Assembly: GCA_964572255.1 (NCBI GenBank)
Contig: CAZNEE010000003.1
Span: 25,258 to 89,257 of the forward strand
Origin: an uncultured Planctomycetia bacterium
GTDB lineage: Bacteria; Omnitrophota; Gorgyraeia; Tantalellales; Tantalellaceae
Length of the DNA stretch: 64,000 bases
Direction of reading: 5' to 3'
A program made the position numbers and the translations under genes. Shown piece by piece: positions 4,996 to 58,800 of this stretch. Position 1 is the stretch's first letter. Every line of letters begins with the position of its first letter. The notes beneath the pieces were generated by a model. The model searched no databases. It worked only from the letters and a program-made list of their open reading frames with translations, and was not told the DNA's origin.

Positions 4996-4997
4996 GT

Positions 4998-32125: not shown

Positions 32126-32165
32126 CTTAACTCCTCCTCTTTTTTAGTTTAAAACCTTATTTATA

Positions 32166-33827: not shown

Positions 33828-33840
33828 ATCCTTTCTTTTT

Positions 33841-34713: not shown

Positions 34714-34726
34714 ATTCTTCCTATTA

Positions 34727-35638: not shown

Positions 35639-35753
35639 CCCACCTCGTTCGTTATATTTATAATATTAAGGAAAAGAACCTGAAAAAGGGTAGTCACATT
35701 TTACATAAATTTGACATTCCTGTCAAATAATTTACATTTGCTGAATTTTTATG

Positions 35754-35791
35754 TGGATCCTCCCTGTACGGAAACATACTGCACTCTTAAA
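35754..35791. repeat. Second copy of 38-bp conserved intergenic element
   Basis: TGGATCCTCCCTGTACGGAAACATACTGCACTCTTAAA matches 21190-21227 with 2 mismatches. It lies between the giant gene 1 stop and the ABC permease operon start. Confidence 0.55.
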
Positions 35792-35839
35792 TTCAAAATC
35801 AGCAAGATAAGTTGTGTTATTTACAGCTATGAGCAGCGA

Positions 35840-41800: not shown

Positions 41801-44128
41801 AGATGTGTGGCCCGGAAAACGTCCGGGATGAGCTATCAGGTCGAGCGGGATCTTATCTTCGTCATTTTCGACCGCTTCATTGAATTTTTCATATATTTTC
41901 AACAGCCCGGGGATAGAATATAACTTGATGCTGATATCCTTGACCGTATGGTTCTTGACATTTACATCGATTTCCTGAACATCATCATCGTACCCCAGGT
42001 CCCGGCCAAGGCCCTGACTTAACATGCCGCCGAGCACAACATTAATATTTTTATGCTGTTTATCGGTAAGAGCTTCTACCCTGACAAGAACACTCGCGGC
42101 TTCATTGCCCGGTGAAAATCTGTTCTTGAATACCACCCTTATAACATTTTTGGTCGCTTCGCTGAGCTCATGTCCTGTCCATTCAGCACTGATCTCGCAC
42201 TTACGGATGTATGCTTTTAAAATATCTTTCCATTCATCCGACGCTTTCTGCCAAACTCCCGGATCGGCGTTCTTCTCTACTTCTTTAAGCCATTCCTCCA
42301 CCAGTTTTATTACCACACCGTCATGGAAGTCTTTGGCTATTTTTTCATAAGGTATAACTTCTTCGCCGGCCTGCTGCATCTTTTCATAAACATCCTTGAG
42401 CTCCTCGTCTATTTCTTTAAGCTGATCAGGATGTTCAAGAAAAAGCGGTGTAAGATAGACCGCTCTCATCAAGGGGTTCATCATTCCGCTTTCCGGCTTG
42501 GCAACCTCTTCACTTGATTTTTTGACGTCGCTCATGCCGGCTATCGCGGCGCTTTCAGTGATAATATCTTCAATGGAAGTTCTCTGGTTAGTAAGTACTT
42601 TTATGTAAGGAGTTTCAACATCTTTTGTGATCTTGGGAGTAATAACAACGTAAGATATGCCTTTTTTCTCGAGTATATCTTTCATGCCTCTTGTGTGGAA
42701 CCCTCCAGCTATCATGACACATGCATTTTCTCCGGATTTTTCCATTTCCTTAAGGGTGTTCTCGATCAGTACATTGTCTCTTTTCATCGCTATCTCGTAA
42801 AAACTTACCATGTCAGGAAGATTTTCACTGACCTGAAGAGGTATCCCGTTCAGGGAATAATTCAGCGCATATTTATTGCACAGATCCCCAATAAAAGCGG
42901 CAACGTCATCTAGAGTAAATTCATCCTGATATTTTTTGAAAGTGTCATAATCGCCGTTGGTAAGTTCGATATTCACAAGATCCAGATACAGATCGATCAT
43001 GTGCGCGTATTTATCAAGCGTTCGCTGCGCCTCATCGGTAAATAATTTGTCTTTGATCCTTGTTTTCGCGATCTCTATCTCATGAAAAAGCCCTTCATTA
43101 TCGATCATGTCATAAAGTTTGGTGTAAAGGTAATAGTAAAAAAGATTGGGATATTCCTGGACTATCGGCAGATTATGTGTTTTGGCAAGTTCTCTTAAAT
43201 AAGTGTAAAATTCAACCGCCTTTATGTGCCCCTTTTTGAATCTTATGCTCTCTCCGACAAGCGCTGTCATCTCTTCTTTGGTGAGTTTATCGCTTAAAGC
43301 GTCGATATAACGGCTTCTTTCCTGATCGACTATATCAAAATCTATTTTTTGTTCATATTCCAGAGTCTCTATGAGCTTTTTTAAATTGGCAAGATCTTCC
43401 AGTTTAACGCCTTTTTTCGACGCATTCTTATAGAGATAATCCGCGAACGCGCTAAGTTCCAGTTCCTTTTCTCCAAACGCCGTGATTCTCTGGTCAAGCT
43501 CTTTTAATTTTGGAGGATAAATAATTGATTTGAGCCTGCTTACTACTGTCTTTAGATCGGTAAAATAATTCTCTATATTATTTTTATGAGGGTAAACTTT
43601 GGTGAAGGCTTTAAGGTTCTTAATGTAATAATCTCTCGTTTCAGCACCGAATATCGTGCCGTTATAATTTGATGTGATCGAATAAAACTCCGTACCGGTT
43701 ATCTCGCCTTTTTTCATGAAATAATCGGCGACTTCCTTGCGGATCTCAGCATCCGGAAAGGCCCTGAACCAGCTTGTATCTACCAGGCCTTCGGCACCTT
43801 CCACTGAAATAACATCAACACCGCATTCGGTATGAAGCTGATCGAGCATTTTGTTGATATTGTGCTGGGCTTCATAATTACAGTGGGCATCCTGGATGTG
43901 AATTATGATCTTGTCTGTCTTACCTTCGAATTTTTCCTTAACAATCCCGTAATCAAGAGCAACTCCGATATCCTCAACAGTAAGCTTATCTGTTATCTCT
44001 TGAACTTCGGGCGCGGTTACTTTGTTTTCCGGCACCGTGTAACCGATACTGTAGAAAGAAAATGTAAATAAGACAAAAAATGTCGCAAGTTTAAATAATA
44101 ATGTTTTTTTCATCCCTTCACCAAACAT
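35840..44128 (-). CDS. Giant multidomain protein 1 (2762 aa)
   Basis: Single uninterrupted ORF; the likely start is MKKTLLF at about 44113 after GGTGAAGGG. Domains in order: N-terminal signal/TM; a TraB/GumN/Tiki-like module (nt 42540-43920); a GMP-like nucleotidyltransferase tail (YWPDIGQ) with left-handed beta-helix repeats (about 40200-41000); a four-domain phosphohexomutase (FGTSGLR, TGSHIP, DGDSDR, RPSGNEP; 38200-39845); a type-I mannose-6-phosphate isomerase cupin (GDVIPVKAGMLHALGPG; 36900-37900); and a C-terminal region of unknown function. Confidence 0.75.
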   Translation of the reverse strand: MFGEGMKKTLLFKLATFFVLFTFSFYSIGYTVPENKVTAPEVQEITDKLTVEDIGVALDYGIVKEKFEGKTDKIIIHIQDAHCNYEAQHNINKMLDQLHTECGVDVISVEGAEGLVDTSWFRAFPDAEIRKEVADYFMKKGEITGTEFYSITSNYNGTIFGAETRDYYIKNLKAFTKVYPHKNNIENYFTDLKTVVSRLKSIIYPPKLKELDQRITAFGEKELELSAFADYLYKNASKKGVKLEDLANLKKLIETLEYEQKIDFDIVDQERSRYIDALSDKLTKEEMTALVGESIRFKKGHIKAVEFYTYLRELAKTHNLPIVQEYPNLFYYYLYTKLYDMIDNEGLFHEIEIAKTRIKDKLFTDEAQRTLDKYAHMIDLYLDLVNIELTNGDYDTFKKYQDEFTLDDVAAFIGDLCNKYALNYSLNGIPLQVSENLPDMVSFYEIAMKRDNVLIENTLKEMEKSGENACVMIAGGFHTRGMKDILEKKGISYVVITPKITKDVETPYIKVLTNQRTSIEDIITESAAIAGMSDVKKSSEEVAKPESGMMNPLMRAVYLTPLFLEHPDQLKEIDEELKDVYEKMQQAGEEVIPYEKIAKDFHDGVVIKLVEEWLKEVEKNADPGVWQKASDEWKDILKAYIRKCEISAEWTGHELSEATKNVIRVVFKNRFSPGNEAASVLVRVEALTDKQHKNINVVLGGMLSQGLGRDLGYDDDVQEIDVNVKNHTVKDISIKLYSIPGLLKIYEKFNEAVENDEDKIPLDLIAHPGRFPGHTSLTPNMYMDAEDFEILTEDEIQRLALHEIYHIVYGMTEKEVREKVNIMDIRRKIGEKRKKEAEERTKLDEERLIAENSGLRTNLQNIDNTHKAIKANDNVKIVAVVSMERDQKDWQERFDQTAKSLFNSDNSTLMLALKEQIETKTKKGKIEKKTREGNFLGTLLAYDYIKKAAKKAKINYRDYVTLIGMLFGQGERMSPFTDVEAVRKPAIASTAASMDIDGSKESISAIEEALLYFGPVAKYLEARGFRGILDKWGDETQVASVDLFAAPEEGESLAERDVMKVVSVMELDEISDEKAKQKDWVIFDEQGNMLAQVARNPNGAEALREDLKAKMQELGIDSDRVGISLGPVAVSYDVLDIASEVFDKEIKKDGVYFDFDPYFLMALAMDNDTDKWGKAVEADGKLEELVKMVPWFFEKVQRVKEIFKEKYGRELSLKIFDLGDNVYWPDIGQHEAMREKYLAINDDGPDGIVARKIEGISGVRDANGNIIINSEISEDVKVRNSVIINSKITGAGKVNGSVIKDSTLGDVEITDSFAVSSSRTGKTVLNQHSGIYKSLGSKLDDLALDEKMRHGTVLTDNGPVGMMVSEDTNLRDKNNTYNVPIYNNELSFKETHEVMAGVSMEELERRRQEALGEIARIDEKMEKFKTLTFGTSGLRDEVVNMTDMECYINTRGYIEYLINSEDIKRGDTISIAGDRRSSTGRILKAVAKAIEEAGCAVDYCGELPTPAITYWGMQNGRASIMVTGSHIPDDRNGIKFVKPNGEVLKDDEAGILANVKNIRKKIYAKDWDELQFSGDGIFKMAPAEFKSVNEKAREAYIQRYIDSFPADFLKGKRIVLYQHSAVGRDILEKILAALGAEIIPVERSDDKFIPVDTEKLSDETRDLLKQFAEEYSPDVIISTDGDSDRPLFADENGNFLPGDKLGALAAQFLKPDFIAIATSANPEMVKDLKNMKSAKGKKIKVKRTKIGSPYVIKAMNDYRVPLSDKDKKKAKVISWESNGGFLTATNFKIPGGNKELLPIPSRDAALPLLLAIGQIAEGQKASELIASRLASYQTDASKVSGDKKDKSGNIIEKGEIPEYTPDVGKAIVAMFSPKDKKSKIGEVKFDDEKGVTAIDKDEAEYKLTDDELDELLEIRKNIKGYFTSEMGFEDEIVMLNLIDGIRMTFANDDVVHLRPSGNEPIFRFYVGAKTSDRCTEMLAKRVAIVQKMVDKALKKDAPPQTQSPGVWAARTIDENTPEGLIATALKEGKPVYSEPYREAKEWGREDQIVSVKIGEYWDGFMAPKTALLKIEDEAAPMFGVIAQVPKEALGEKPVMDYGAEMPLVKLLTPQEWLSVQFHETKNESWLVTEAEEGARIIFGFSEEAIEEHEGQKIGVSEAYQNIANAYDSKLKDLYEVLVHLGYEKQLEKVGRVLPVARMARASSPKNEHLGVHIKTIEVLRNEMEKFYNYVEVKPGDVIPVKAGMLHALGPGVTVVEPQIPGTTQSTDDFDRLRYRSWYPEAKKGLDLDRIHESIPVVGKITSMEVIEATDTYKIERMPGNFESKGLEAHVITFTGSGVIEVSDIASLHRFWLIEGGEASVAGVDGTAYHIPRAVPGKGMLFVPASAGGYKIIAEAGTKIVDVFTPQLEEREFPKPMAKGPEVPAVDEFEWLEKIVFLKNGDTFDRLDIIKPVGRPEILAARAHSLIVQKGKIKVETPEGTPIEPVAIGKYNIPQDQDYIIKPETGTERAVVKVMYEKTRDENIVYTSYENLRKHVSVTAGKTINLIQPVEMFAPGDDSNDVGSHKWEQQQLRENVNPNITIRTYQAKLGLDKVAEMDLKDDEINVLVGTKANIQDAVNSTNPEVREMLEEGNIRILVIPDIDQEKDLEGKGWYFTREVEGTAILLAAVTPEDISKKDEGNAADDLQKFIEQLTGRSMKREALYFMLPRKEISSGAMKILPEELKAQAFGHLLFLIRNVMLNMPIRPFKEDRLHTRRQLLLSA

Positions 44129-44341
44129 GATTATCTCCTCTCATTATATACGTTTATGTAGTTTACTATTAATATATACAAGATAAAATCACCCCAAAAA
44201 GTAGTATTCTGACTTTTTTTTATGTTTACATTTGTTAGATGTATTATATAAGAAAACCATGTTAAAGTCAATATTATATACTCTAACTATTTTATATCTT
44301 AATACCAGTTTTGTTTGTTTAACTTTATATAAATAAAGAAC

Positions 44342-47300
44342 TTACATACTTATTAATGCAGCTTCATAGCTCATTCTTTCCGCTTCAAGTTCTTCATCAA
44401 TAGCTATCGGCTTTATTCGGAAAATATAATAGCCTAATATATCCTTTTCCAGGACGGCATTCTTGTTCATGAATTCCGGAATTTTGTTATCATTTACCAT
44501 TAGTGAAATGATCACGTTGTAAAGCTGGGATTCCAGGCCTTTTTCCATCTTGACAAAAAGCATCTTGTCCTCGTTCAAAAGGTGCATACCTTTTTCGTCA
44601 TTCTGTAGCATAAGATCCCTTGTGTCGCCTATCGCTATATCTTTTGCTTCGGCCCCGTATTTTTCATTTATAAGGGTATAGATCTTGCTCACGCTGTCTG
44701 AGTCCCTGAACGAAATATCATCTTTTGATATAACATCATCCACTCCGGCCAGCTTGAGAATCCCGTCAATATTATCTTTCGTAATATCTTCACCTTCCAG
44801 TCTTTCGCGCAGTTCCCCTGCTATTCTTATATGGAGTTTTACGGGATATTCGCCTTTGCCGAGTTTCCTGTAATCATCGATCGCTTTTCTATGCTCGTTG
44901 GCAAGCCAGCGAAGCCCGTTAATATCTTTAACTCTGAATGTAGCTATCTTTGTGCCCTCAAGCTTTGATAGTTTTGCTTGAAGGTTCTCTGCGTCTTTTG
45001 CCTGAAGCCTGTTCATCTCGGCGATCCTGTCAAATTTATACTCATATACCTTTAAGTCCGAGGACCTTAAAGACCTTAATACCGCAAAGCGGTTTGATAT
45101 GATATCCAAGACTTGCTGAATTTCGCCCATGCTTTTTCCGCTAAGTGAGGTCATTTCCGGACTTCTATTAAATTCGCTTATAAATTTTGCCTTATCTTTC
45201 TCTTCAATATCCGTTATAAATTCATGTAATACTTCCTGGAAATCTCCTTCCGCGCCCTGGATCAAACCGGCGGTATACGCACCGTACTCCCTCCTGAATG
45301 CTTCTAATTTTTCCAGATTTTCTTCCTCGCTGCCTGCGCTTAAAGCCACGCCTTTTATGCCTCCTATATTGCTTTTGAGCATTTCTTCATCTATTCTCTC
45401 CTGCGAAACTCCGATAACTCCGATAACTATGCCGATCGATTCTTTCTGATGAATATAGTCATTTATTTCTTTAGGCAATTCATCGTATTTTGGACAATGG
45501 ATGCCATTAGCTATAAGGCCTATTTTTTCATGAGCTACAAGAGCTTTTCCGAGATTATAAAGTCCTTCCATCTCTGCACCGCGCTGAAGGGCTAACTTTA
45601 TGAAATCTCCTCTTAACGTGCCCGGAGCCGCTTCGAAAGCCTTGGTCGCGCCTACGACAACCCTTTTGAAGATGTCCTGGAAGGGGATGGATTCAAGCTT
45701 TTCATCATCAGGATATTCCGAATCGGCGCCAAAATCTCTAACAAGCTGTCTGCGGGATACACGCGACCTAAGAATCACCATCTCAACGCCGCGGTTAAGG
45801 CATTCTATCGAGTATTTCAGCAGCCTTACTGATTCAAGATCAGGATGTTCTTTATCCACCTTCATGAACCACGTGTAGAACTTTTCTCCGTTTCCTGTTT
45901 CAAGGGCTTCTCTTGCGTCTTTTACATCAATACCCTCTTTTTCGATATCATTAACGGAATATTCAAGTCCGCTGCCCGCGCCCCAACGTTTCAACACTTC
46001 ATCCATTCCTATAGGGCCGATCTTCTTTCCTACGCGCCCTACGTCAAAACCTTTTTCTTCCAAGTATCGTACGATACGCAGGCGAAGTTCTTCCGGTATC
46101 CCCATCTTGAACAGCATGACCGCATGATTTTCTTCTCCTGGATCTTCCTCAAGGCCTTCCCGCAAGGTTTTGTTCAAGATCTCCGCTTTGTCCTGGTCTG
46201 TGGAATATATCTCTTTTTTTAATCTCTCGAGAACATCTTTTTCAGTTACGGTTTCACCGTCGATAACACTGCCGTATGAAGATATGATCTCCCTCAGAGC
46301 TTCTTTTTTCTTCTTAAAAAGATCCACGGTTTCAGATCTCGAAAATGAATCCACAAAAAGAAGATAAATATCCGCGAACAGATCATCCGAAAGTTCTATC
46401 CCTTCCGGGAATTCAATTTCCCTTCTCACCTCAAAAAACAAAAAATCCTCAAAATCGCTTACGCTCAAAAGGACTTTTTCCGCATTTAAGAACGACGGCT
46501 GTATCTCGTTGGTTTCCTCTAGGATCATATCGTTATAGAACTTCTCGCGGTCATTCTCAGACATGCTGCGTGTTATTCTGTTCGTGCGAAGACGGCGCAT
46601 CAATTTTACTTTTCTCATTTGAGACCTGGTCCACACGGCAACTAGACTATCGAACAGTTTCTCTCGTTCCCCTTCAAGAAACGCTTCATTACTGCCGAAA
46701 AGGCGTCCGGTGATAATATAGACATCTTTCTTGTTCGGTATGATCTTCTCGACGAAATCACCTGTAATGAAAGTCCCGTTCTTTCTCTCCGTAATATCAA
46801 CATACAGGTTTTTCCTGTCAAATTTTCTGTCACTGTACTTTTCAATATCTTTTATTCTTTGGACCACTTGTTCCTTGAGGGCTTTATCTTTTACAAGCCA
46901 ATTGCCTTCCTCATCAAATAGCTGCTGCAGGAGCAGGGTCTCTTTGACCCTTATGACCCGCGCTCCGTTTTTCTTAAGATCGTCAACCAATTTCCTTATA
47001 GCCTCGGTAAGCTCTTTCTCTTTCACCTTGCCTGACCCGTCTAAATACGCGTTCGATCCTATAGTGTCTATAATGCGGATCCTCTTGCTCTCTTCCGGAA
47101 CGTAAAAAGGCATGAAAAGCTCGTCATGACCGCCGCGGCCATTTCTTAGGTTGTGTATGAAGCTCCTGAATCCAAGAGTTCCTTTGAAGCCGAATTTCCC
47201 GGAAATCCCCAAAGGCGTCTCTCTTCGCGAGTGATCCAACAGCCATCCCGATTCCATGGAAATGCGGTTGACTTTAACACTGTCCCCCATTTTTTCCTTC

Positions 47301-50300
47301 AGTTTATGGGCTATACAATTAGATACGTATTCCTTTCCTACGTCACGGCCGCCGAACAAGCCGATTATAGTAACCCTCCCCTCGTTAAGATTGGTCTGGT
47401 AAGAATTTTCGACCTCTTTCACTATATCCTCTATTCCCTCATCAAAATCGTTTTCGCTTATCTTTCTAAGAACGCTGGACTCATGTAAAAGACCCGCTAT
47501 TTGCTCTTCCAGCGTAAGGGATTTATCCGCATCGTAGAAAAAATCCTCGTGGAGTTCTGCCAGTCTTTTCAGCACAAGACGTCTAACTTCAGAATACGGG
47601 CTTTTTGCGGCCTGCATAAAGATAGGTATGCTTTTATAAAGCCCCTTGACCTCCGCCTTGACCTCCTCTTTGTTTTGCTCCTTACTTTCCTCGATATTAC
47701 GGGCCACCTGGCGTTCTATTATATCGGATACGGATCTGCTTGCCGCTTCCAGGACCGACTTGTCTTCCTCGGTACCGGCTATTTCATTGAGAACTTCCTT
47801 GGCTTTTTCCTCGAATATCTCCACATCTACTTTCGATAAAGCCAAGGCAGCGGCTTTACGGATCTCCGGACTCGGGTCCTCCTTCAGGAGTTTTTCCAGA
47901 GGATAAAAAACTATCAGATCATGATATTCAAGTAATCCGTTTATGCCCAACAAAGCATTTAAGAAGCTGCTTACAAGAACGTCGCTCTCTTCCAATCTTA
48001 TCCGGAACCTGTTCTTGGTTGCCGGTATCTTGGCATTATGGTGTACCATAACGGGATGAGGCTGAAAATCGGCAAGTTTTGAAACCGCGGTTTTGATCCT
48101 TCGCGCTCTCTCGCTTACCATGCCGTAATCTCTTTCGATTATATCCTGCTGCAAGACCGGATATTCGCGCAGGTTTTCGCGCGCATCCCCTATAAATATA
48201 TCTACATAGATCGGCGCGACAACGGCCTTCACTTTGGCTTCGGCCTCTTCTCTGGACTCTTTATATTTATCCATGCGGAACTGGATCGAATCCTCCCGCT
48301 TTTTAATGGATTCTTCCAGGCTCTTCTTTTCAACGATATATTTGAACATATAGTCATATGTCCCCACCGCTATTTCATCCACCACGCTGATATGTTCTCC
48401 GTATTTTACTCCATTCAGTATCCCTGACGTTTTAAGCTGCCACCAGATCCCGTCGAGGACTTCCCGCCACCGTTCTTCTCCTGACGTGTATTTTTGGTCC
48501 AGGTCCTCTAATACCTTTTTTTCAAGTTCGGGATAAATACCCTCATATTTATCCTCTTCTTCCCTGATCTCTTTTAAAGAACTTATGACAAAATGTCTGT
48601 ATTCATAATAATCGCCTAAAGTGTCGCGCGAAATGAAGAACATCTCATGGTTTGATTTTTCCTCACCGCGGATCTGATCCATTATAAAAGCGGTCTGGAA
48701 AACGCTTCCCGCGGCCCTTGCAAGATACACCCATTTTTTTATGCCTTTAACTTCTTTTACGGTTTTAGATGCATATTCTCCCTCAGGATTAAAGTAATAG
48801 GTCCTGTAAAAGCTCCCATCGGCCCTTTTAGCGACATAAGACCTTAAATACCAGTCTTTTTCTATATTTTCCATGAAATGTGTAAAATACGGGTTGGAAC
48901 GAGTGACCCTGACTATATCATTAAAAGAACAAAGCGGGGTCATTTTCCATTTCTCGCCCGAATCCTCGACTACCGTTCTTTCGATCGATTCGGTCCTTAT
49001 AATAGGGGAATTGCCGTAACTTATATATTTTTCCCCGTCTATCATTGTGATCATCGAATCGACGCCGTAATGCGTTCTTTTGTACCATTTATATTCCTTG
49101 TCGCTCAAAGGACGCAATTGGTCGGGATGCTTTATGATATTTATAAGTCCGGGATTGGTTTCCGTACCGTCCCCGTAAACAAAAAATTTAAGATCACGAT
49201 ACTCGTTATACTTCTCTTCATAAAGATCAGGATCTTTATCCATAACCCCGTTTGATTCCATTTCCAGCAGCTCTATTTCCAGACCATCAAGGAACATATC
49301 GGCCCTTTTTTCCACCTTCTCCACTATCTCGTACATTGTGAAAGGCCTGTAGTATTTACCGTCTTTAGTGAACCTAAAATCCAGGCTTCCCAGTGCTCGC
49401 CAGAATTTCGTTAGATTTTCAGAATAAGGATCTATCTTTACCCCTATCATGTTCGAGGAATGGCTCATTTCGACCACAACGCCCGCTTTCTTGAAATCCT
49501 TGCCTATCTCATTTTTAAGATCTTCAATGCCTATCGGCAGGTCTTCGGGATCTAATTCTATTTTTATTTCGTGATAAGGCCCGATGATCCTGGATTTTTT
49601 TCTTAAACCGTACTTTTCCAGGCGTTTATTGATTATCCCCATTATACTTGAAGGGCTTTTTTCCGCATCTTTCTTGGGCAGGGGAACTCTTTTAAGCTCC
49701 GCCAGGGCTTCGATGATCTCTATTTTTATCTTATTATTTATATTTACATCGCTAAGCGCTTTTATCAGTTCAGATATGGCCTCCGGCATGCCCAATGCCT
49801 TAAGCGCTCTTGCCCCTTTGATCTTTTTCTTTTCGTCGCTGCTTTTCAGGTTTTTAACAGCATTGTTAAACTTCCTTTTATTCGACTGTATCTTTTTCTT
49901 CTCTTCCTCGGCCGATAATGCCCCAAGAGCTACGAGTCCTCCCAGCGAAAAAATTCCCGCAAAAAGATCCGGATGATCAGCTTTTAATTTTTCGATGCGG
50001 CTCTTATATTTTTCTCTTATTACCTTGTCTTTCAGGCAATCTTCGAGCATTTCTTCTACCAAAGGATATAACCAGCCCTTGCCTGTCTTGAATTCAAGAT
50101 ATCTTAAAAGAAAATGTGCAGCCTCCTCCTTTTTACCTTCAGAATAATAGCGTTCAGCACAAATATAGCATGAAAATGATGCTCTGCGGGGATTACCCTT
50201 AATCATCTCTATAGCCTTTTTTCTATCTTCAATTACGCCTTTATCAGAATAAATCTTCCAAAATATGAAAGTATCGCTTTTTTCTAGGGCTTCCCTTATT

Positions 50301-53300
50301 TTTTTCATTCTTTCTTGTATATCCTCAACCCTGTTAAATTTTCTATAACAATTAAGAAGAAATGAGTTGGACACTATATAAGTTTCTATAAGCCACTTGC
50401 TCTCTCCGCTTTTGCGTTTTTCCAACAGTTCGACAGCTTTCTCATAATCTCCCATAATAAAATAACTAATGCTTACCGCCATAACAATTGCGTGGTGATC
50501 TTTTACATTTACATCCGTTATTTTATTATACTCATCAATACATTCCTGATAACGCCCACGCAAAGCAAGTATTTCAATATTCCCCCATTTACATATTTGA
50601 TCATTATTTTCACTACGCGGATATTTTTCTTTATCATCAAGAACTTCTTTGAATACTTTTTTCGCTTCATCTAATTCAAAATTATTCGACATCCACCACC
50701 CCATATATGCTTTCATTCTATTGACCTCATATAAATCTTCTGGGGGATACTCGAGGTACTTTTTAGCTATCCGAATAGCATCTGATAAATTATTATTGTA
50801 TGAAAATTCAAAAGCAATTTTTTCATAAAACATACTTAATTCTTTTCTTACTTCATTATTATCTTTATATTTTTCTTCAATTAAATCCGCACATTTCAAC
50901 GCTTCCTCAACATTCTTCTGTTTGTAATAAATCTTTGCCAGATGTAAAAGTGCGTGAGGGGCAAATTCCTCACCCGGATGGTCCTGAGATAATTTTTTAA
51001 ATGTATCGATGGCATCCTGTTCCGATCCTATTTCCAGATACGCAAGTCCCATATTGTAAGCCGCGTATACGGCAAAATCTGTACCCGGATATGCCATGAT
51101 TATCTTCTTGCATTCGGTAATCGCCTCATCATATTTTTTATCTTTAATAAAATCCTCTATTTTGCCTTCAAGCTGAAGACGTTTAATGCGTGCTTCTTCT
51201 TCAAGTTTTTTGCGTTCTTCTGCAATACGCTGCCTTTCTTTTTCGGCTTCCTCAGCGGTTTTTCTTTTTTCTTCTTCAAGACGTTTTTGCTCTTCCTGCA
51301 AAGCAAGTTCCTTTTGTTTTGCTTCTTCAGTTTCTTTCTTTATGTAAATAAACGTACTTATGCCTGCTATAATCACCGCAATAAACAGAATTAATCCGGG
51401 AATAAAGAGTTTTTTATTTCTTTTTAGATACCGCTTGAATTTTTCTCCTCTTGATAAAGGCCTTGCTTTGATCTCACGGCCTGCCAGATACCGTTGGATG
51501 TCTTCCGCTGCTTCCTGCGCGGTCTGATAACGGTCCTCCGGGAACTTCTCTATCATTTTCATGATAATAGTGTTCAGGTCCTCATCCTTCCTTATCCCCC
51601 TGTAAATCCTGCTTCTTCTTTTTTTTACAGGAACCGGTTCTTCGTGTAAGATCTTGTTTAAAACCTCCATGACTTCTTTCCCTACAAAAGGCGGATGACT
51701 TGCGAACATTTCATATAGCATCGCACCGGTTGAATAGATGTCATTCCTCCGGGTCGGATCATTGCCTCTTGCCTGCTCCGGAGGCATATAGGAAGGCGTG
51801 CCCATTGCTGAACCTGTTTGGGTAAGCTTTACGGATGATTCGATATTTTTAGCCAGACCGAAATCCATTATCTTGATCTGACCTTTTTTATCTATGAGTA
51901 TATTGGACGGCTTTATATCGCGATGGATTATCCCCTTGCTGTGCGCGTATTCCAGCGCCTCCAAAACATCAACTATTATATTCAAAACCTGTTCTTTGCT
52001 TTCAAGCTCCTTATTTTCCATCAACTTATCCAAAGTGGTTCCTTCCACATATTCCATGGTAAAATACGGATACTCGTTGCCGTTATCTCTCAAGGTACCG
52101 AAATCATAGATCTGAACGATCCCGGGATGGGTCAATTTCGCTACCGATTGAGCTTCTTCTATGAATCTTGCGATATCTTTTTCGCTCGCATTTTCAAGGT
52201 TTTTCATCAGTTTCAACGCCACGTAACGGTCCAGTTTCGGATCATACGCCTTATAAACCACGCCCATTCCGCCTTCACCCAGTTTTTGAACAAGCTCATA
52301 CTGGCCTAACTGGCCTATTGATTGAACGTGCTTGCTTGTTGTGCGCCGGTATTTATCCAATATAGTTCCGCCGGGCGTTTCTTTAAGGTGCCTTTCTGAA
52401 GCAGGTGTTTCATCCGCCATTGTAGCGTCCGGATCACGGACTATGGTCTCTGTGAAACCGACACTTGCTTCAAATTGTTTTTTGCAGCCGGGGCAAGTGA
52501 AATTCTTGCCGATATCAGATGATTTTATACGGAGTAATTTGTCGCAATGCGGGCAATTGATGTTTATTTTCTCCGGAGCAGCCGGTTTTTGGACAGCAGC
52601 TTCTACGAACTGCTGATCTTGGGCTTCATCTTCTCTTATCCTGGTAAGCGCTGCGTCTTCACCTTTAGTTTCGGGAACCTTTTGCTCGCCCAGAACAAAT
52701 GGTTCATGGCATACAGGGCACTCCGCCTGCTGTCCTAATAGTTCCTTTTTTACGGAAAGTTTTTTCTCGCAATGCGGACATTCTATCTGGACTTTTTCCT
52801 CTCCGACCGGTTTCTGTTGAACCGGCTTCTGTTTTTGTTGTACCGGTTGTCCCGGCTTGAACCTGGTTTCAACGAACCTGCGCATTGTATCATTCGCTTT
52901 ATGGCTATCACGTATTGCGACTCTCTTGCCCAGTTCCTGTTCTTTATCATATTTTGTTGTTGCGTGCCTCTTCTCATCATGAATGAGCTTTCTTAAAAAC
53001 TTTTTATCATTTTCAGAGGAAGACATAGCTAAACTTCTGAAAGCCTTCTCGCTAAGGTAAATATATTTACCCCGAGGTTTTTTTGTCTTCGGGTCAAATC
53101 GTGCGCCAGCATGTGAAAATACCCATTTGTCCTGAGCGGGATCCACAAGTATAAAATTCGGGTCCGTAAGCGACTTGCTCTCTATTAAAATCACGCTTAT
53201 ATCGCTCGGAAGTTCTGTATACAAGTCTTTTCCGTACAGTTCTATAAGCATATTTGTAAGGCCCAGATCGCTGGAAGTATATTTATTTTGAGCGATCCCT

Positions 53301-55555
53301 TCTCCCCAGATCTCTCTTTTTGCGGCCTGCTGAATGATCCTGTTGATCTCCTGGTGAGTTTCCGGATCATACGAATTTGTTGAGCCGAGATTGGTTGAAG
53401 AGATCTCCTCTTCTCCGCCTTCGGCCGCAGTTCCGCGCTCAAGGCCTGATCCCTTGTCCTGTTCAGGAACATTCTTCTCCGATCCCCTCTCTTTTCCTCT
53501 TATACGTTCGATCCTCTCGAGGATTTCACGTCCCTGGCTGGACGATATTTCTTCATAACCCCGGCGAAGCGGCGATCCCTGGGGGGATTCCATTTTTCCG
53601 CTATCGCCGGGTTTTGAAACAAAATAGGTAACATTGCCGTCTTTTGTTCTGACCATCAGAAAAGACCCGTCTTCCACGACATAACCATCTTCCAACCTCA
53701 TTTTCTTTAACCTTATACGTTCCAGTTGCCCTCGACCCCTATATTCTTTTACGCCGAGTATCCTGGCGGCCTTAGCAGGATGGATCGTGTTAGCAATTTT
53801 CTCCGGCGAGATTTTTTCGTCCGCGAAATACTGTTTCGCATATCCGTCAAGCCATGTTTCGGCTTCACGAGACCAGCTGCCCATATCCCGCGCTTCTTTA
53901 CCCGGAAGCCAGCGAAATGCCAGGTCCAAAAGATCTTCCTCGCCGATATCCCCGGAATAAGGCTGGGCCGCAAGCTGGTATTTCCCGGTTTCTAAAAGTT
54001 TCTGGTAGGGTTTCTTCTTGTTGGTAAGAATAGCTATGTAAGGTCTTTCAGTATTATCTTCGAACTTAGGCGATACGATTAAGTAAGACAGTTTATTCTC
54101 ACGCATGAGCTTAGCAAGCCCCTTGGAGTGATAACCTCCCGTTACAAGCACAGCTACATGTTTTCCCTCTTCATGCATGCGTCTGAGTGTGTTAGAGAGC
54201 ATTGCTGAATCACGTGACTCCGCAATACGGTAAAATTCCAAAGCCTTGCTTATCCCTTTAAAAATATTGCCGAGATCATACCCCTCTTCTATTGAAACAA
54301 CGTACTTACGGCATGTTCCTTTTATGAATTCAGCGCATTTTTCAGAATTAAACTCATCCCTTTGCACCGTTAAACTTAAATATCCATCATTGTCAAGCTC
54401 TGCGCTGTAAAGGCCTTTTAATAACCCCGCGAATCTGATCCATTCGCTTAAGCGCCTTTCGTCGTTATTTCGATATAGCTTGCTTCTAATGTTCTCTTCC
54501 AGACCGGAGATCTCTTTATAAAGCGAAAAGATATCGATCTGTTCATATGATGAAACATACTTAACAAACTTTGCGAGATCTTCATAACCATCGGCATTTA
54601 ATCCGTAGGAGGAAGCGAGATTTATCAAGTGCCAGTGAAAATCGGCCTGGGAGATCTTGTTCTGCTTGAATTGAATGGATTCCAGGACAAGGATCTCAAG
54701 GTCTTTTTTATTAAGGGTGCCGCTTAACTCATCGATAAGCCTTTTTCTTTCATTATTCGCCTTGATGAAATTTATCTCTTTCTCGGCCTTTATGGTCTGG
54801 ATAAGTCTGGTGATGTTGGTATATTTTTCCGTAGAGATGCCTTTTTTTGCCGCTATTTTCTCGATGGTGCCCCAATAGTCCGAAAACCCTATTCCGCCTT
54901 CTTTATGCAGTTTTGATGCATCTTCGAGTGCTTTTAATCCGCTGCTGTAAACCTTCTTGGAAAGCTCTTCCAGCTGGAAAAGCAAATTATCGACCTGGCT
55001 TACATAAAATGCGCGCTCCTCGACGATCTTTCTGAAACTTTCAACATTTTTGTTATAAAGTTCCTCATTTTCCACACCATAAAGCGCGATATCATCTTCA
55101 TCCGAGATTATCGTGAAAAATTCACCCGCGCTCATTCTGCCTTCAGCGAGAAGCTCCCCGGCGATCCTTTCTCTCGCATCCTTATCGGGTATGGCTTTGA
55201 TCAAAGACGTGTTTAAATACCCTTCCGCGCCCTCCAAAGCAATGAGCTTTACGTCGTAATTTGCCACCAGTTCATCAATTATCTGTGTTATTGAATACTG
55301 CGCTGAAAGTGACGCGTGTGCATCCTGTATGTTTATGATAGTATCCTTACCGCCGTTAAGTAAGATCTCATTTACCTTGCCGGCATTATAAGAAATATCT
55401 ATGTGATTTGAGTTTGATTGTGTTTGGAGGTTGTAAAAACTCTTAAGATCTGACCAAACCGGCTGCCCTTCTTGCACCCAGCCGATCTGCTCATGAGTGA
55501 AGACCAGTATTATTATTATAGATATTATTCTAAAGAGTTTGCTTCTTCGAAGCAT
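44342..55555 (-). CDS. Giant multidomain protein 2 (3737 aa)
   Basis: Single ORF. Domains in order: N-terminal TM; a TraB/GumN/Tiki-like module homologous to giant 1 (nt 53995-55345); a low-complexity linker; a double zinc ribbon (CPHCEKK..CPVC and CPHCDK..CPGC; 52480-52800); a Hanks-type kinase (GEGGMGVVYKA, HRDIKPSNIL, DFGLA, GTPSYMPPE; 51480-52310); a TM helix; a K/E coiled coil; TPR-like repeats; and about 1800 aa of unknown function. Confidence 0.75.
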   Translation of the reverse strand: MLRRSKLFRIISIIIILVFTHEQIGWVQEGQPVWSDLKSFYNLQTQSNSNHIDISYNAGKVNEILLNGGKDTIINIQDAHASLSAQYSITQIIDELVANYDVKLIALEGAEGYLNTSLIKAIPDKDARERIAGELLAEGRMSAGEFFTIISDEDDIALYGVENEELYNKNVESFRKIVEERAFYVSQVDNLLFQLEELSKKVYSSGLKALEDASKLHKEGGIGFSDYWGTIEKIAAKKGISTEKYTNITRLIQTIKAEKEINFIKANNERKRLIDELSGTLNKKDLEILVLESIQFKQNKISQADFHWHLINLASSYGLNADGYEDLAKFVKYVSSYEQIDIFSLYKEISGLEENIRSKLYRNNDERRLSEWIRFAGLLKGLYSAELDNDGYLSLTVQRDEFNSEKCAEFIKGTCRKYVVSIEEGYDLGNIFKGISKALEFYRIAESRDSAMLSNTLRRMHEEGKHVAVLVTGGYHSKGLAKLMRENKLSYLIVSPKFEDNTERPYIAILTNKKKPYQKLLETGKYQLAAQPYSGDIGEEDLLDLAFRWLPGKEARDMGSWSREAETWLDGYAKQYFADEKISPEKIANTIHPAKAARILGVKEYRGRGQLERIRLKKMRLEDGYVVEDGSFLMVRTKDGNVTYFVSKPGDSGKMESPQGSPLRRGYEEISSSQGREILERIERIRGKERGSEKNVPEQDKGSGLERGTAAEGGEEEISSTNLGSTNSYDPETHQEINRIIQQAAKREIWGEGIAQNKYTSSDLGLTNMLIELYGKDLYTELPSDISVILIESKSLTDPNFILVDPAQDKWVFSHAGARFDPKTKKPRGKYIYLSEKAFRSLAMSSSENDKKFLRKLIHDEKRHATTKYDKEQELGKRVAIRDSHKANDTMRRFVETRFKPGQPVQQKQKPVQQKPVGEEKVQIECPHCEKKLSVKKELLGQQAECPVCHEPFVLGEQKVPETKGEDAALTRIREDEAQDQQFVEAAVQKPAAPEKININCPHCDKLLRIKSSDIGKNFTCPGCKKQFEASVGFTETIVRDPDATMADETPASERHLKETPGGTILDKYRRTTSKHVQSIGQLGQYELVQKLGEGGMGVVYKAYDPKLDRYVALKLMKNLENASEKDIARFIEEAQSVAKLTHPGIVQIYDFGTLRDNGNEYPYFTMEYVEGTTLDKLMENKELESKEQVLNIIVDVLEALEYAHSKGIIHRDIKPSNILIDKKGQIKIMDFGLAKNIESSVKLTQTGSAMGTPSYMPPEQARGNDPTRRNDIYSTGAMLYEMFASHPPFVGKEVMEVLNKILHEEPVPVKKRRSRIYRGIRKDEDLNTIIMKMIEKFPEDRYQTAQEAAEDIQRYLAGREIKARPLSRGEKFKRYLKRNKKLFIPGLILFIAVIIAGISTFIYIKKETEEAKQKELALQEEQKRLEEEKRKTAEEAEKERQRIAEERKKLEEEARIKRLQLEGKIEDFIKDKKYDEAITECKKIIMAYPGTDFAVYAAYNMGLAYLEIGSEQDAIDTFKKLSQDHPGEEFAPHALLHLAKIYYKQKNVEEALKCADLIEEKYKDNNEVRKELSMFYEKIAFEFSYNNNLSDAIRIAKKYLEYPPEDLYEVNRMKAYMGWWMSNNFELDEAKKVFKEVLDDKEKYPRSENNDQICKWGNIEILALRGRYQECIDEYNKITDVNVKDHHAIVMAVSISYFIMGDYEKAVELLEKRKSGESKWLIETYIVSNSFLLNCYRKFNRVEDIQERMKKIREALEKSDTFIFWKIYSDKGVIEDRKKAIEMIKGNPRRASFSCYICAERYYSEGKKEEAAHFLLRYLEFKTGKGWLYPLVEEMLEDCLKDKVIREKYKSRIEKLKADHPDLFAGIFSLGGLVALGALSAEEEKKKIQSNKRKFNNAVKNLKSSDEKKKIKGARALKALGMPEAISELIKALSDVNINNKIKIEIIEALAELKRVPLPKKDAEKSPSSIMGIINKRLEKYGLRKKSRIIGPYHEIKIELDPEDLPIGIEDLKNEIGKDFKKAGVVVEMSHSSNMIGVKIDPYSENLTKFWRALGSLDFRFTKDGKYYRPFTMYEIVEKVEKRADMFLDGLEIELLEMESNGVMDKDPDLYEEKYNEYRDLKFFVYGDGTETNPGLINIIKHPDQLRPLSDKEYKWYKRTHYGVDSMITMIDGEKYISYGNSPIIRTESIERTVVEDSGEKWKMTPLCSFNDIVRVTRSNPYFTHFMENIEKDWYLRSYVAKRADGSFYRTYYFNPEGEYASKTVKEVKGIKKWVYLARAAGSVFQTAFIMDQIRGEEKSNHEMFFISRDTLGDYYEYRHFVISSLKEIREEEDKYEGIYPELEKKVLEDLDQKYTSGEERWREVLDGIWWQLKTSGILNGVKYGEHISVVDEIAVGTYDYMFKYIVEKKSLEESIKKREDSIQFRMDKYKESREEAEAKVKAVVAPIYVDIFIGDARENLREYPVLQQDIIERDYGMVSERARRIKTAVSKLADFQPHPVMVHHNAKIPATKNRFRIRLEESDVLVSSFLNALLGINGLLEYHDLIVFYPLEKLLKEDPSPEIRKAAALALSKVDVEIFEEKAKEVLNEIAGTEEDKSVLEAASRSVSDIIERQVARNIEESKEQNKEEVKAEVKGLYKSIPIFMQAAKSPYSEVRRLVLKRLAELHEDFFYDADKSLTLEEQIAGLLHESSVLRKISENDFDEGIEDIVKEVENSYQTNLNEGRVTIIGLFGGRDVGKEYVSNCIAHKLKEKMGDSVKVNRISMESGWLLDHSRRETPLGISGKFGFKGTLGFRSFIHNLRNGRGGHDELFMPFYVPEESKRIRIIDTIGSNAYLDGSGKVKEKELTEAIRKLVDDLKKNGARVIRVKETLLLQQLFDEEGNWLVKDKALKEQVVQRIKDIEKYSDRKFDRKNLYVDITERKNGTFITGDFVEKIIPNKKDVYIITGRLFGSNEAFLEGEREKLFDSLVAVWTRSQMRKVKLMRRLRTNRITRSMSENDREKFYNDMILEETNEIQPSFLNAEKVLLSVSDFEDFLFFEVRREIEFPEGIELSDDLFADIYLLFVDSFSRSETVDLFKKKKEALREIISSYGSVIDGETVTEKDVLERLKKEIYSTDQDKAEILNKTLREGLEEDPGEENHAVMLFKMGIPEELRLRIVRYLEEKGFDVGRVGKKIGPIGMDEVLKRWGAGSGLEYSVNDIEKEGIDVKDAREALETGNGEKFYTWFMKVDKEHPDLESVRLLKYSIECLNRGVEMVILRSRVSRRQLVRDFGADSEYPDDEKLESIPFQDIFKRVVVGATKAFEAAPGTLRGDFIKLALQRGAEMEGLYNLGKALVAHEKIGLIANGIHCPKYDELPKEINDYIHQKESIGIVIGVIGVSQERIDEEMLKSNIGGIKGVALSAGSEEENLEKLEAFRREYGAYTAGLIQGAEGDFQEVLHEFITDIEEKDKAKFISEFNRSPEMTSLSGKSMGEIQQVLDIISNRFAVLRSLRSSDLKVYEYKFDRIAEMNRLQAKDAENLQAKLSKLEGTKIATFRVKDINGLRWLANEHRKAIDDYRKLGKGEYPVKLHIRIAGELRERLEGEDITKDNIDGILKLAGVDDVISKDDISFRDSDSVSKIYTLINEKYGAEAKDIAIGDTRDLMLQNDEKGMHLLNEDKMLFVKMEKGLESQLYNVIISLMVNDNKIPEFMNKNAVLEKDILGYYIFRIKPIAIDEELEAERMSYEAALISM

Positions 55556-55726
55556 CTAATCCCCCCAGTTAAGGAAAAATGGTTATATCTTGCTCTTTAT
55601 TATTTTAACTTCTTAGGTATATATAATATAATAAATACTAAGTTTTGTCAATTCTAATCTATCTAACTTTTTTAATACTTAATATAGCTTATCTCCTTCT
55701 AAATAAAGTACTTACATAAAACGTCC

Positions 55727-55772
55727 CTATCTCCGGCCGCTTGGCATTACCGAAGAATAGGGACGCTTTTGG
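55727..55772 (-). terminator. Rho-independent terminator 3' of giant gene 3
   Basis: Minus-strand sense CCAAAAGCGTCCCTATTCTTCGGTAATGCCAAGCGGCCGGAGATAGGGACGTTTTATG: an 8-bp stem GTCCCTAT/ATAGGGAC followed by a T-run. Confidence 0.5.
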
Positions 55773-55877: not shown

Positions 55878-58800
55878 TTACGCCATGATGGCTAACTGTT
55901 CGTATATCTCCTTCTCTTCATCAAGTCTCTTCATGTCGATCTTTTCGATATTCGGCAGATATACGTACCAGCTGTCGTATCCTTGCTTCTGGATGACCCG
56001 ACCCAAACTTGCAGGTATCTTGCCGTCATTGGCTATGATCTCTATGGCTGTAAAGAGAAGCTGTGATACTATTCCGGCACCCTGCATCTGGACATATACA
56101 GGTTTCTCCTGTTTCAGTATATTGAAGTCGGTCTGCGACACCAGGAGATTCTCGGTATCGGCTATAATAACATCGCTTGCATCCTTAACGTTAAATCTTC
56201 CCTTCGCAAGTTCCAAAGTCCTCTCAAGCGTCATGTCCTCTTTAGTCACTATCGTCACATTTGATATATCCAGGTACATATCCAGCTCTGTTGATTTCAT
56301 GGCACCGGCAAGGTTCTTATCGGTTATATTTTCATCCAGGATCCTTACCTGTATGAACTCTGATGCAGCTTCTTTAGTGATGCCCATGTCTTTTATGGCC
56401 TGTCCGATGAACCTCATATCTGCTCCGCTCTTGGCCAGGATGCTTATATAGTTGGCTTCTCCGTCATTTGGCCCTTGAACGGCGTATCTTTCAGCTTCGC
56501 TTGAGATCTCATATCTTGAAAGCACTTTGCCGTGTATATTGTTGAACCTGAGGTCATAGATGTTCTTCTTGGCCACGCCGTAAGAGACCGCCTCAGGCAT
56601 TACTATTGTATAAGCTTCCAATATATTCTTTATCTCTTCTTCCAGCTCGTCGATCTTCTTGAGCTTTTCGTTTATCAGCTGTGTCGTTAAGTTGAAAACA
56701 GCCGGGTTGACAAGCGTGAATACGGCCCTGAGTAAAGGAGCTGCCGCTTCAAGAGATTTTTCAAGCTCCTGGAGTTCTTCCATCTTGCCTGCGATCTCTT
56801 CCGGTGAAAGCTCGAATACATCGGGGTGTCCAAGGACATAAGCGTTCCTTTTAACATCCCGGGCTTTCGTGATAAGTTCAGCCGCGATATCGATCACTTC
56901 CTTGTCTTCAAGATTATCGAAATCGGTATCAAGAAGAACACCGACACCGTTCTTCGCGCTTATGTCTTTTTTCTGCATGAGGACCCTGAGATTTTCCATC
57001 ATCTCTTCTGCATCAGCACCGGCAACTCTCACAACCTCAATAACCCCGTTCATGTCCCTTATTCCCTTTACTATATCTTCTTTGACATCCGCGTTTTCGG
57101 AAATAGCGACTATTACAGGGAATTCCGGCATGGATCCTTTAGTCCTGATGCCTGCCGCGGCAAACGGAGCAAATACACCTATGCCTATGCTTGCGATAAT
57201 TATGTCGATTATATCTCCGTTTGTATCGTACTCTATAGTTTGAATAAGAGTGCCTGTATCGTCATATTCGTATTGAAAATGCACCTGCTGGGCATCCGGA
57301 TCGGGATAATACTCAAACGTCCTGTAAGTGTTATCGGGCCTTGTTTCCTGCTGGAGCCTTCCGTACCACTCGCCTGTATCCGGATTCTGGAAGAAATCCT
57401 CATCTATGTGAAGATATACCGTACCGTCCGCAAGGGTTGTTGTCTCGACACGGCCTGACGGATAATAGGTATATAACCTGTCCGCTAAAAAGTCCTGCAC
57501 GTTATTTATCGAACCGTCATTGTTATATTCTATGATCTTGACAAGCGTGCCGTCGGCGGCATACTCCCTTTCATACTGTTTCTGGGCATCATCCGGAAAC
57601 GGGAAGTATTCGAACGTCCTGTAAGTGCCGTCGGTCCTTGTCTCCCGCTGGAGCCTTCCGTACCATATGCTCGTATCGGGATTCTCATAAAAATCCTCAT
57701 CCAAATATCTATGGATCGTTCCGTCGTCAAAAGTCGTGCTCTGAATGCGTCCTGAAGCGTAATATGTATATATCTGATTTAACGTAAGGTCCTGCACGCT
57801 GTTTATTGTTCCGTCCGGATTATACACGATCACTTTCAGGAGATTATCGACCGCATCGTATTCTCTTTCGATATAGATCTGGTCAGTTCCTACATAGTAT
57901 TCAAATGTCCTGTAAGTGTTGTCGGGCCTTGTCTCCCGCTCAAGCCTTCCGTACCAGATCCCTGTATCCGGGTTCTGATAGAAAGCTTCATCCATGTGAA
58001 GATATACCGTACCGTCCGCAAGGGTTGTTGTAGCAATGAGGCCTGATACCGGATAATAGGTATATACTCTGCCCGCCAACAGATCCTGCACGCTGATTAT
58101 CGAACCGTCTGTATCATACTCGGTGATCTTGACAAGCGTGCCGTCGGCGGCATAATCATACTCGAAATGCGCCTGATGGGCATCCGGATCGGGATAATAT
58201 TCAAATGTCCTGTAAGTGCCGTCGGGCCTGTTCTCTCTTTCGAGTCTTCCGTACCAAACTTCCGTATTCGGATCCTGGTAGAAAGCTTCGTCTATGAGTA
58301 TATGTACGGTGCCGGCCGCTATATCATCAGTCGTACCGAAAACCAGGTCAATACCCGGGTCATCAACATGGTAAGTGATACTCTGTATGCGCCTTGAACC
58401 AAAATAATACTGGATCGTCCTTTCATGCGTACCACCAGCAGTATATAAGTTTTCTTGGTATATATGGTCGGTCCTTTTGCCCGTAGTAGGATGACTGTAA
58501 TATGTAAATGTATTATAAGTACCGTCCGGATTGATTATCTTTGTAATCCGGCCGTATCCGTCATTGTAGAAGTCATAGTCTTCACGGTAGATAACGGTGC
58601 CGTCCGGATGTTCTTCCTTTCTTACCAGGCCGGAATCGTAAAGATGGTACGTGATGCCGTTTTCCGTGAAAGTCTTGGCTTTCCACTCACCGTAATCTCC
58701 ATCACAACCGAACGGGAACGGTGCTCTACCGTCTCTCATGATCATTGCCGGAGCTACGATGAAGAAGTAAACTATTAAGAACAATCTGCTGAGAGTCCTT

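Follow-up and report, generated by a model that had tools for sequence, protein, structure and literature searches.

Why would a bacterial protein of 3737 residues carry a eukaryotic-like Ser/Thr kinase deep inside its chain? Does its gene specify a dedicated signalling scaffold of unprecedented size, as an earlier note on this DNA had proposed, or a mosaic in which the kinase is one module among several? These questions are raised by a stretch of 64,000 nucleotides (the window) from an uncultured Planctomycetia bacterium that GTDB places in the Omnitrophota (assembly GCA_964572255.1, contig CAZNEE010000003.1, positions 25,258 to 89,257). Three giant open reading frames (ORFs), here called gA, gB and gC, lie side by side on its minus strand, as do all other features located below. 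The middle one, gB (44342..55555), is translated without interruption from ATG to stop over 11.2 kb and is a genuine gene with a catalytically intact kinase. It belongs, as an unusual member, to the known Omnitrophota family of long mosaic proteins and does not represent a new signalling machine of record size. With moderate confidence, we read gB as a membrane-anchored mosaic of head, cargo and tail that carries a complete receptor-type Hanks Ser/Thr kinase unit, arranged and operating as proposed below.

The kinase of gB and its zinc ribbons

The Hanks-type kinase domain of gB (aa 1086-1348; 51512..52300) matches Pfam Pkinase PF00069 with E=1e-58 and 199.2 bits against a cutoff of 31.7. Its best match among solved structures is PknB of M. 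tuberculosis (1MRU; E=2e-60). The motifs from which the earlier note had deduced an intact core are all in place: GEGGMGVV (1093-1100), VALKLM (1112-1117), HRDIKPSN (1211-1218), DFGLA (1231-1235) and GTPSYMPPE (1252-1260). In the alignment with 1MRU, the glycine loop G1093-x-G1095-x-x-G1098 and the APE Glu E1260 are kept, K1115, E1134, D1213, N1218 and D1231 fall on the catalytic residues, and T1244/T1246 fall on the activation-loop threonines of PknB. gB thus encodes an RD kinase in which both activation-loop Thr are conserved. The kinase looks active because the catalytic Lys and Asp residues, which the same note had singled out for a check, are unmutated in this alignment.

Judged by its sequence, the gB kinase is not a PknB orthologue. 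It fails the NCBIfam equivalog NF033483 for PknB/Stk1 with PASTA repeats (321 bits against a cutoff of 450), the match spans the kinase and juxtamembrane part only (profile positions 7-280 of 563), and Pfam finds no PASTA repeats in gB. A basic juxtamembrane stretch, RYLKRNKK, follows the kinase domain. The closest kinases among the best 120 matches are stand-alone Ser/Thr kinases (STKs) of the STK-TPR or STK-WD40 type from Planctomycetota, Bacteroidota and others, with 40-46% identity. In itself, the gB kinase is ordinary.

Two Cys4 zinc ribbons precede the kinase, one at aa 920-955 (52691..52798; CPHC...CPVC) and one at aa 995-1030 (52466..52573; CPHC...CPGC). The four CxxC pairs implied by the earlier description of two ribbons are present (926/929, 946/949, 1001/1004 and 1021/1024), whereas Pfam and NCBIfam models match them only below threshold (923-953 and 997-1031). 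Ribbon 1 matches Zn_ribbon_4 at E=0.0019; ribbon 2 matches DUF7836 at E=3e-4 and YnfU at E=1.3e-4. We also considered a defence kinase (PD-T4-6, MADS mad6 or BREX PglW) and rejected it: the PADLOC and NCBIfam matches are generic, confined to aa ~1034-1437, where the kinase domain and its near flanks lie, and below the curated NCBIfam cutoffs, and the window holds no defence partner genes.

Head, C-terminal modules and tail in relatives of gB

What is the remainder of gB made of? The head module (aa ~55-520; 53996..55393) has the core alpha/beta fold of the TIKI/TraB/EreA/ChaN proteins, split by a helical insert of ~300 residues (aa 164-462). D78-x-H80, E108 and G473-G474-x-H476 are invariant in 28 head sequences. 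E108 follows H80 by 28 residues, the spacing found in Bcr135 (H85/E113) and RRSP (H3902/E3930). In these proteins the residues belong to a 2His/2Glu catalytic motif, comprising E3900, H3902, E3930 and H4030 in RRSP (PMC6254334). The correspondence of the head to this motif rests on spacing, not on residue-level superposition, and its first acid is Asp, not Glu.

A TIKI/EreA-like hydrolase fold, apparently catalytic, is therefore supported for the head at the level of fold and motif, not of sequence profiles. Pfam finds no TraB_PrgY_gumN, erythromycin esterase or Cofac_haem_bdg match on gB aa 1-560 at E<=5, sequence and profile comparisons with the PDB return no superfamily member, and Foldseek is not significant (best E=0.06). 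The TraB/Tiki module suggested previously for the N-terminus survives in its fold and motif but not in these Pfam and PDB searches. The superfamily includes esterases and non-enzymes (ChaN, PMT), and the fold does not imply a peptidase (PMC6254334). Weak PDB matches of the helical insert to troponin-C/EF-hand proteins (E 0.008-0.05) were discarded as noise from its helical pattern, since Asp residues that would serve as Ca ligands are missing from the loop.

Between the head and the ribbons lie a low-complexity head extension rich in G, E and S (aa 521-720) and an unassigned segment (aa 721-915; together 52811..53995). Pfam finds nothing in this extension and linker at E<=5. The relative P0165 aligns to gB aa 20-686, and an ORF of locus L025 matches aa 561-691. 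Across six non-kinase segments of gB, Pfam at the same threshold returns HEAT only; head, linker, aa 2886-3385 and tail stay without a match.

A protein database search with gB aa 1-560 gave 41 matches, 40 of them from Omnitrophota or unlabelled metagenomes and one labelled Elusimicrobia. The 30 best are 37-55% identical and, where labelled, all Omnitrophota; most of the 41 are cut off by a contig end, and Pfam recognises no domain in the head region of any of them. When one genome per species was scanned, the head turned up at no fewer than 567 genome loci. The best 80 of these come from metagenome-assembled genomes (MAGs) of Omnitrophota or from MAGs labelled only 'uncultured Planctomycetia bacterium', often with several loci per contig. 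The head is N-terminal in 81 of 81 ORFs, starting at most 103 codons from the preceding stop. The majority of the ORFs extend beyond the 10-kb flank and are thus longer than 3800 aa, others are just 540-1100 aa, and P0163, which has the same head as gB, reaches 7272 aa. Going by these searches, proteins of the head-cargo-tail family, as we define it in this analysis, are found only in Omnitrophota, the one Elusimicrobia-labelled match aside. Cargo varies even among the closest heads. Head genes that directly follow tail-ending genes are common in other Omnitrophota, giving tandem arrays of head..tail units (L025, L028, L049 of Ca. Omnitrophus magneticus, and L079; L003, L020, L026, L032 and L036).

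By the same kind of comparison, the C-terminal 1850 residues of gB appear as modules that recur in the family, not as orphan sequence. The first, C1 (aa 1883-2680; 47516..49909), consists of HEAT repeats (~1900-1960), two conserved submodules of unknown function and further HEAT repeats (2540-2650), with HEAT_2 Pfam matches near 1900-1960 and 2552-2608. C1 occurs in 21 cluster representatives, which include head-bearing proteins of 7272, 4067 and 4001 aa as well as stand-alone proteins of 800-1000 aa. No Pfam family is found for C1 in seven smaller relatives, and when its profile is compared with the PDB the HEAT part alone matches. The submodule C1b (aa 2261-2680; 47516-48775) has the conserved motifs YLARAAGSVF, MFFISRDT, VVDEIAxGTYDF and ADFxPHPVKV and is probably enzymatic. 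A type I phosphoribosyltransferase-like assignment of C1b (YLARAAGSVF ... VVDEIAVGTYDF) was tried and found to be without support: the profile matched only HEAT/alphaRep proteins, and the resemblance to a phosphoribosyl pyrophosphate loop is an impression only.

C1 is followed by a P-loop module (aa 2682-3116; 46208..47512). Its segment GLFGGRDVGKEY (2732-2743), suspected in the earlier note of being a degenerate P-loop, is indeed a conserved Walker-A-like loop. In gB it reads G2735-GRDV-G2740-K2741-E2742 and fails the canonical GxxxxGK[ST]. The loops of its relatives end in GK-R, GK-K or GK-S, and P0165 alone has a canonical Walker A. The module may have a P-loop kinase fold like that of uridine kinase or phosphoribulokinase (PRK); its structure model reaches a pLDDT of only 60.6, and as a single sequence the module finds no relevant relative in the PDB. 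C1 and the P-loop module are common to P0163, P0165 and P0042.

A possible NDK-like domain follows, with an insert (aa ~3148-3335; 45551..46114). It has the motifs LFKMG..., GATKAFEAAPGTLRGDF and NGIHCP and retains the catalytic His of NxxHGSD. NCBIfam NDK matches it sub-threshold (E=0.0045, 16.8 bits against a cutoff of 155), NDK accounts for 9 of 13 weak profile matches in the PDB (E 0.4-2.3), and a 49%-identical copy lies elsewhere in P0165. We treat this candidate as a lead only. The tail (aa 3370-3737; 44345..45448) forms the extreme C-terminus. Fourteen ORFs, gC among them, end in this module, for which neither the PDB nor Pfam offers a relative. Complete proteins with both head and tail occur in L025, L028, L049 and L079 and measure 2205-3085 aa counted from the head. 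A conserved head and tail thus delimit a large family of long mosaic proteins.

Does the kinase belong to this architecture? It is present in 0 of 80 head-bearing loci and in 0 of 21 C1-bearing proteins. Among the best 120 matches to the kinase cassette, no protein is labelled Omnitrophota, and metagenome contigs contain nothing above 42% identity to it. The fusion in gB is, as far as these comparisons reach, a singleton. Because head, C1, P-loop module and tail recur in kinase-less relatives, the kinase unit is best seen as an add-on to the mosaic architecture, and the idea that gB is a dedicated signalling scaffold is not supported. The claim of unprecedented size fares no better: the window alone has three giants, P0163 is far longer, and published Omnitrophota proteins reach 85,804 and 147,155 aa (West-Roberts et al. 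2023, doi 10.1101/2023.11.21.568195; Nielsen & Lui 2026, doi 10.64898/2026.06.07.730766).

Membrane topology, proposed operation and alternatives

Hydropathy, by which membrane segments were called, gives three hydrophobic segments in gB and not the single transmembrane (TM) helix assumed before. The first, aa 7-25 (LFRIISIIIILVFTHEQIG; 55481..55537), is preceded by MLRRSK and followed by acidic residues, which gives it the look of a signal anchor. It is modelled as a helix (6-29) in the predicted structure and is kept in gA, P0163 and P0166 as a family feature. TM2 (aa 1387-1405; 51341..51397) is very strong, with a mean hydropathy of 2.57. The candidate TM3 (aa 1864-1882, LFAGIFSLGGLVALGALSA; 49910..49966) has a hydropathy of 1.96 and is followed by EEEKKKIQSNKRK; in its support, the C1 homologues in P0163 and P0164 are likewise preceded by hydrophobic helices.

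TM2 and TM3 enclose 458 residues. As anticipated in the earlier note, these begin with a K/E-rich stretch and continue with a TPR array. The stretch (aa 1406-1475; 51131..51340) is 60% E+K+R with 9 E(i)-K/R(i+4) pairs, and may be a coiled coil or else a stalk formed by a single alpha-helix. The array (aa 1476-1713; 50417..51130) is matched by TPR_19, TPR_6 and TPR_2 above the Pfam cutoff (aa 1472-1713). Its best family matches are periplasmic YbgF/CpoB, plus BamD/YfiO; NCBIfam tol_pal_ybgF scores E=1.7e-16 and 60.9 bits, below its cutoff of 90.1. Helical sequence runs on to about aa 1860.

Seven K/R lie in the 15 residues before TM2 and six K/R after TM3. Nucleotide-dependent folds flank this pair of helices, with the kinase on one side and the uridine-kinase-like P-loop and the NDK-like lead on the other. 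From the positive-inside charges, the YbgF-like TPR and the nucleotide folds on both sides, the most coherent topology is therefore kinase in, TPR out and C-terminus in. The likeliest arrangement, we infer, is a cytoplasmic kinase, a periplasmic loop of aa 1406-1863 and a cytoplasmic C-terminal part of 1850 residues.

How might such a protein work? In the operation we propose, aa 26-1386, with the TIKI/EreA-like hydrolase head, the two zinc ribbons and the kinase, would be cytoplasmic, and TM2 would cross outward. The ER/K stalk and the YbgF/CpoB-like TPR of aa 1406-1863 would form a periplasmic loop, from which TM3 would bring the chain back into the cytoplasm. There, aa 1883-3737 would hold HEAT/C1, the degenerate uridine-kinase-like P-loop, the possible NDK-like domain and the tail. 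Binding of an envelope or partner-protein cue by the TPR loop would activate the kinase through activation-loop phosphorylation at T1244/T1246, and the kinase would phosphorylate targets held close to it, most economically the modules of gB itself or the two adjacent giants.

Several observations weigh against this account. By the positive-inside rule, the N-terminal helix resembles an N-in signal anchor or signal peptide, and either would carry head and kinase out of the cytoplasm; a homologue, P0019, is annotated 'secreted'. TM3 is Gly-rich and moderately hydrophobic. The earlier note had suggested looking nearby for cognate FHA or phosphatase genes, and Pfam scans of the giants and of 20 ORFs around them gave neither FHA nor PP2C; no other partner gene is seen in the window. 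An orthologue with the gB fusion is absent from all collections searched, so that conservation of the arrangement is not demonstrable. Where TM2, the ER/K helix and the TPR loop are encoded, codon usage departs from that of the remaining gene, with a low third-position GC content (GC3).

Could gB instead be a polyprotein? The head would then be a processing peptidase that cuts head-cargo-tail precursors in the manner of MARTX toxins, and gB would yield a zinc-ribbon STK-TM-TPR receptor of ordinary size together with separate C1, P-loop and tail products. The head always stands at the N-terminus of long ORFs, and it has an apparent counterpart of the superfamily motif, D78-x-H80, E108 and H476, invariant and spaced as in Bcr135 and RRSP; but its first acidic residue is Asp, and a fold shared with esterases and non-enzymes does not single out a peptidase. 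C1 also exists as a stand-alone protein of 800-1000 aa, and the kinase-TM-TPR part alone resembles complete stand-alone STKs, yet head-bearing proteins of 540-1100 aa leave little to process, and neither cleavage sites nor products are in evidence. Cleavage by other N-terminal peptidases (C39, S8) has already been raised in print for Omnitrophota giants. On balance, we think this origin of separate products unlikely. We are equally doubtful of a version in which the head is a cis-acting polyprotein-processing hydrolase and the gB kinase a built-in regulator that phosphorylates co-encoded modules. If it were true, however, a processing-hydrolase head paired with a kinase regulator would offer a testable answer to how Omnitrophota giants are matured and controlled.

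The N-terminal helix invites a second alternative, export or surface display. As a true signal anchor or signal peptide, it would place head, ribbons and kinase outside and the TPR in the cytoplasm, and the kinase might even be delivered to a host or prey cell, much like an effector kinase. The basic n-region, hydrophobic core and acidic flank of the helix are conserved in the family, the annotation of P0019 agrees, and TIKI-fold proteins include the secreted or injected RRSP, HopBA1 and ChaN. The kinase and the P-loop/NDK-like folds, on the other hand, require nucleotides, Cys4 zinc ribbons would be unusual in an extracytoplasmic segment, and the basic stretches before TM2 and after TM3 favour the cytoplasm for both. 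The same helix is the sole hydrophobic segment of gA, yet gA carries PGM/PMM and manA-like domains, and export would take with it PGM/PMM, which act on phosphosugars; because its cargo does so, a cytoplasmic bulk of the chain behind such a head is favoured. Published predictions put most giant-protein domains extracellular, and Omnitrophota have been described as predatory or episymbiotic (West-Roberts et al. 2023; Nielsen & Lui 2026), but doubt about such predictions is voiced in the published study itself, which reports unreliable topology calls. We therefore hold export of the kinase to be improbable. At 3.7 thousand residues (kaa), gB is manageable, and the need for ATP on the kinase side could be used to test the disputed topology predictions for the family as a whole.

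The deviant block itself (codons ~1380-1800; 50156..51418) has a GC3 of 0.23-0.35, against 0.48 +/- 0.07 in 201 windows of other ORFs. Codons of the block show an NNT:NNC ratio of 105:16, compared with 405:316 for the remainder of gB, a five-fold excess of T- over C-ending codons (Fisher p=2e-11). For ATT:ATC, codons 1380-1863 give 22:3 and all other codons of gB 44:88. Together with a fusion that is a singleton in all collections searched, such a skew could signal an artefact, in which the kinase/TPR portion is a chimeric join or separate genes were fused by sequencing error. An artefact of either kind is very improbable, and an assembly chimera in particular unlikely, because the frame is unbroken across all junctions, the block starts and ends at the domain boundaries formed by TM2 and TM3, which fits domain acquisition better than a random mis-join, and ORF 23001..24605 and ORF 32166..33827 of the window are equally low in GC3; in addition, the kinase has a native-like GC3 (0.49-0.51), and the flanking family modules co-occur in single proteins elsewhere (P0163, P0165). 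The codon usage suggests that the sensor loop was acquired separately from the kinase, and more recently. With a TM-TPR sensor loop and a kinase that differ in codon usage, the locus displays mosaicism at the level of domains.

The gB locus and known systems

The downstream neighbour gA (35840..44128) encodes 2762 aa. Its head (42560..44113) is paralogous to that of gB, with 29% identity between gB aa 2-521 and gA aa 6-523 (E about 1e-70), and its cargo includes PGM/PMM domains I-IV (aa 1428-1979) and a weak mannose-6-phosphate isomerase (manA-like) match (aa 2046-2257). gA stands directly upstream of a mannan-utilisation operon (window 26905-44128) with two ABC permeases, GH113+F5/8-type-C, two CBM27-like proteins, GH113, ROK and a solute-binding protein. 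gA thus carries cargo that fits the pathway of its neighbour genes.

The upstream neighbour gC (55878..63977) encodes at least 2699 aa in a frame open to the window end, so that its N-terminus lies beyond it. Its tail (55887..56669) is paralogous to that of gB by sequence comparison. Pfam finds no significant domain in gC. Its hydrophobic segments number about 15-20 within the first 750 residues, and others lie at ~1005, 1680-1750 and 2260.

A G-rich sequence resembling a Shine-Dalgarno site, GGGGGGA, lies ~6 nt 5' of the gB ATG. The two best sigma-70-like promoter candidates of the region, with 11/12 matches, sit in the two short gaps between the giants: TTGACA-17-TATTAT for gB (55623..55651), ~70 nt upstream of the ATG, and a second for gA (44243..44271), ~115 nt upstream. 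They are consensus matches only, and the regional total does not exceed that of shuffled sequence. Given these near-consensus sites in both gaps, each giant may have its own promoter. Also in the gap 5' of gB, at about 55717-55762, is an inverted repeat, GTCCCTAT...ATAGGGAC, with GTTTTAT after it; with a loop of this length, a terminator scan would not flag it.

Elsewhere in the window, a phosphate regulon cluster (3542-12032) appears complete, with PhoU, PstB, PstA, PstC, PstS, a porin, a PhoR-like sCache-HAMP-PAS histidine kinase and a PhoB-like regulator; Pfam confirms the porin and the histidine kinase, and the other assignments are suggested by N-terminal sequences. Outside gB, GC3 is lowest in the window at the PMT_2 glycosyltransferase gene 23001..24605 (0.25-0.37), and its region (22001-24605) may be another laterally acquired segment. 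The other 11 ORFs of at least 150 aa were judged to be housekeeping genes from their N-terminal sequences alone.

How does gB compare with systems already described? The Omnitrophota are known in the literature for long membrane-associated mosaics that combine HEAT, TPR and PGM/PMM with many enzyme domains (West-Roberts et al. 2023; Nielsen & Lui 2026). gB shares their phylum and their build, in which unrelated enzyme and scaffold domains are pieced together on a membrane anchor, and its locus has the same adjacent long genes, mostly Pfam-less sequence and near-singleton architecture. At 3.7 kaa, however, gB lies below the cut-off of those catalogues, which start at 10 kaa. Unlike the archaeovorin/dockerin-type giants of at least 30 kaa (West-Roberts et al. 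2023), gA, gB and gC have no SecA_DEAD, C39/S8 peptidase or dockerin/TSP3 domains in Pfam. Word searches of the main texts of the two papers found no mention of a protein Ser/Thr kinase domain or of a TIKI/TraB/erythromycin-esterase-like head. On the strength of these word searches, the TIKI/EreA-like head, the tail as a family-defining terminus and a Hanks receptor kinase as cargo appear to be new relative to these two texts. The gB locus bears on questions that are open for Omnitrophota giants, namely their function, the location of their domains and their processing.

Two modules of gB differ from their closest known counterparts. Within the superfamily of TIKI, TraB-PrgY, erythromycin esterase and ChaN (Bcr135-136, EreC, RRSP, HopBA1, ChaN), its head stands apart by the ~300-residue insert and by Asp as the first acid. 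Compared with the clade of uridine kinase, phosphoribulokinase and pantothenate kinase, its P-loop module has Glu in place of the Walker A Ser/Thr, Asp and Arg within the loop, a large insert and no Pfam match. With PknB-type receptor kinases and the STK-TM-TPR proteins of Planctomycetota and Bacteroidota (~1000-1250 aa), gB shares the order of kinase, basic juxtamembrane stretch, TM and TPR. Unlike these, it has its kinase 1085 residues from the N-terminus and not at it, no PASTA repeats, a TPR block without sequence similarity to the TPRs of the STK-TPR matches, and a second TM helix that, in the proposed topology, returns a further 1850 residues across the membrane.

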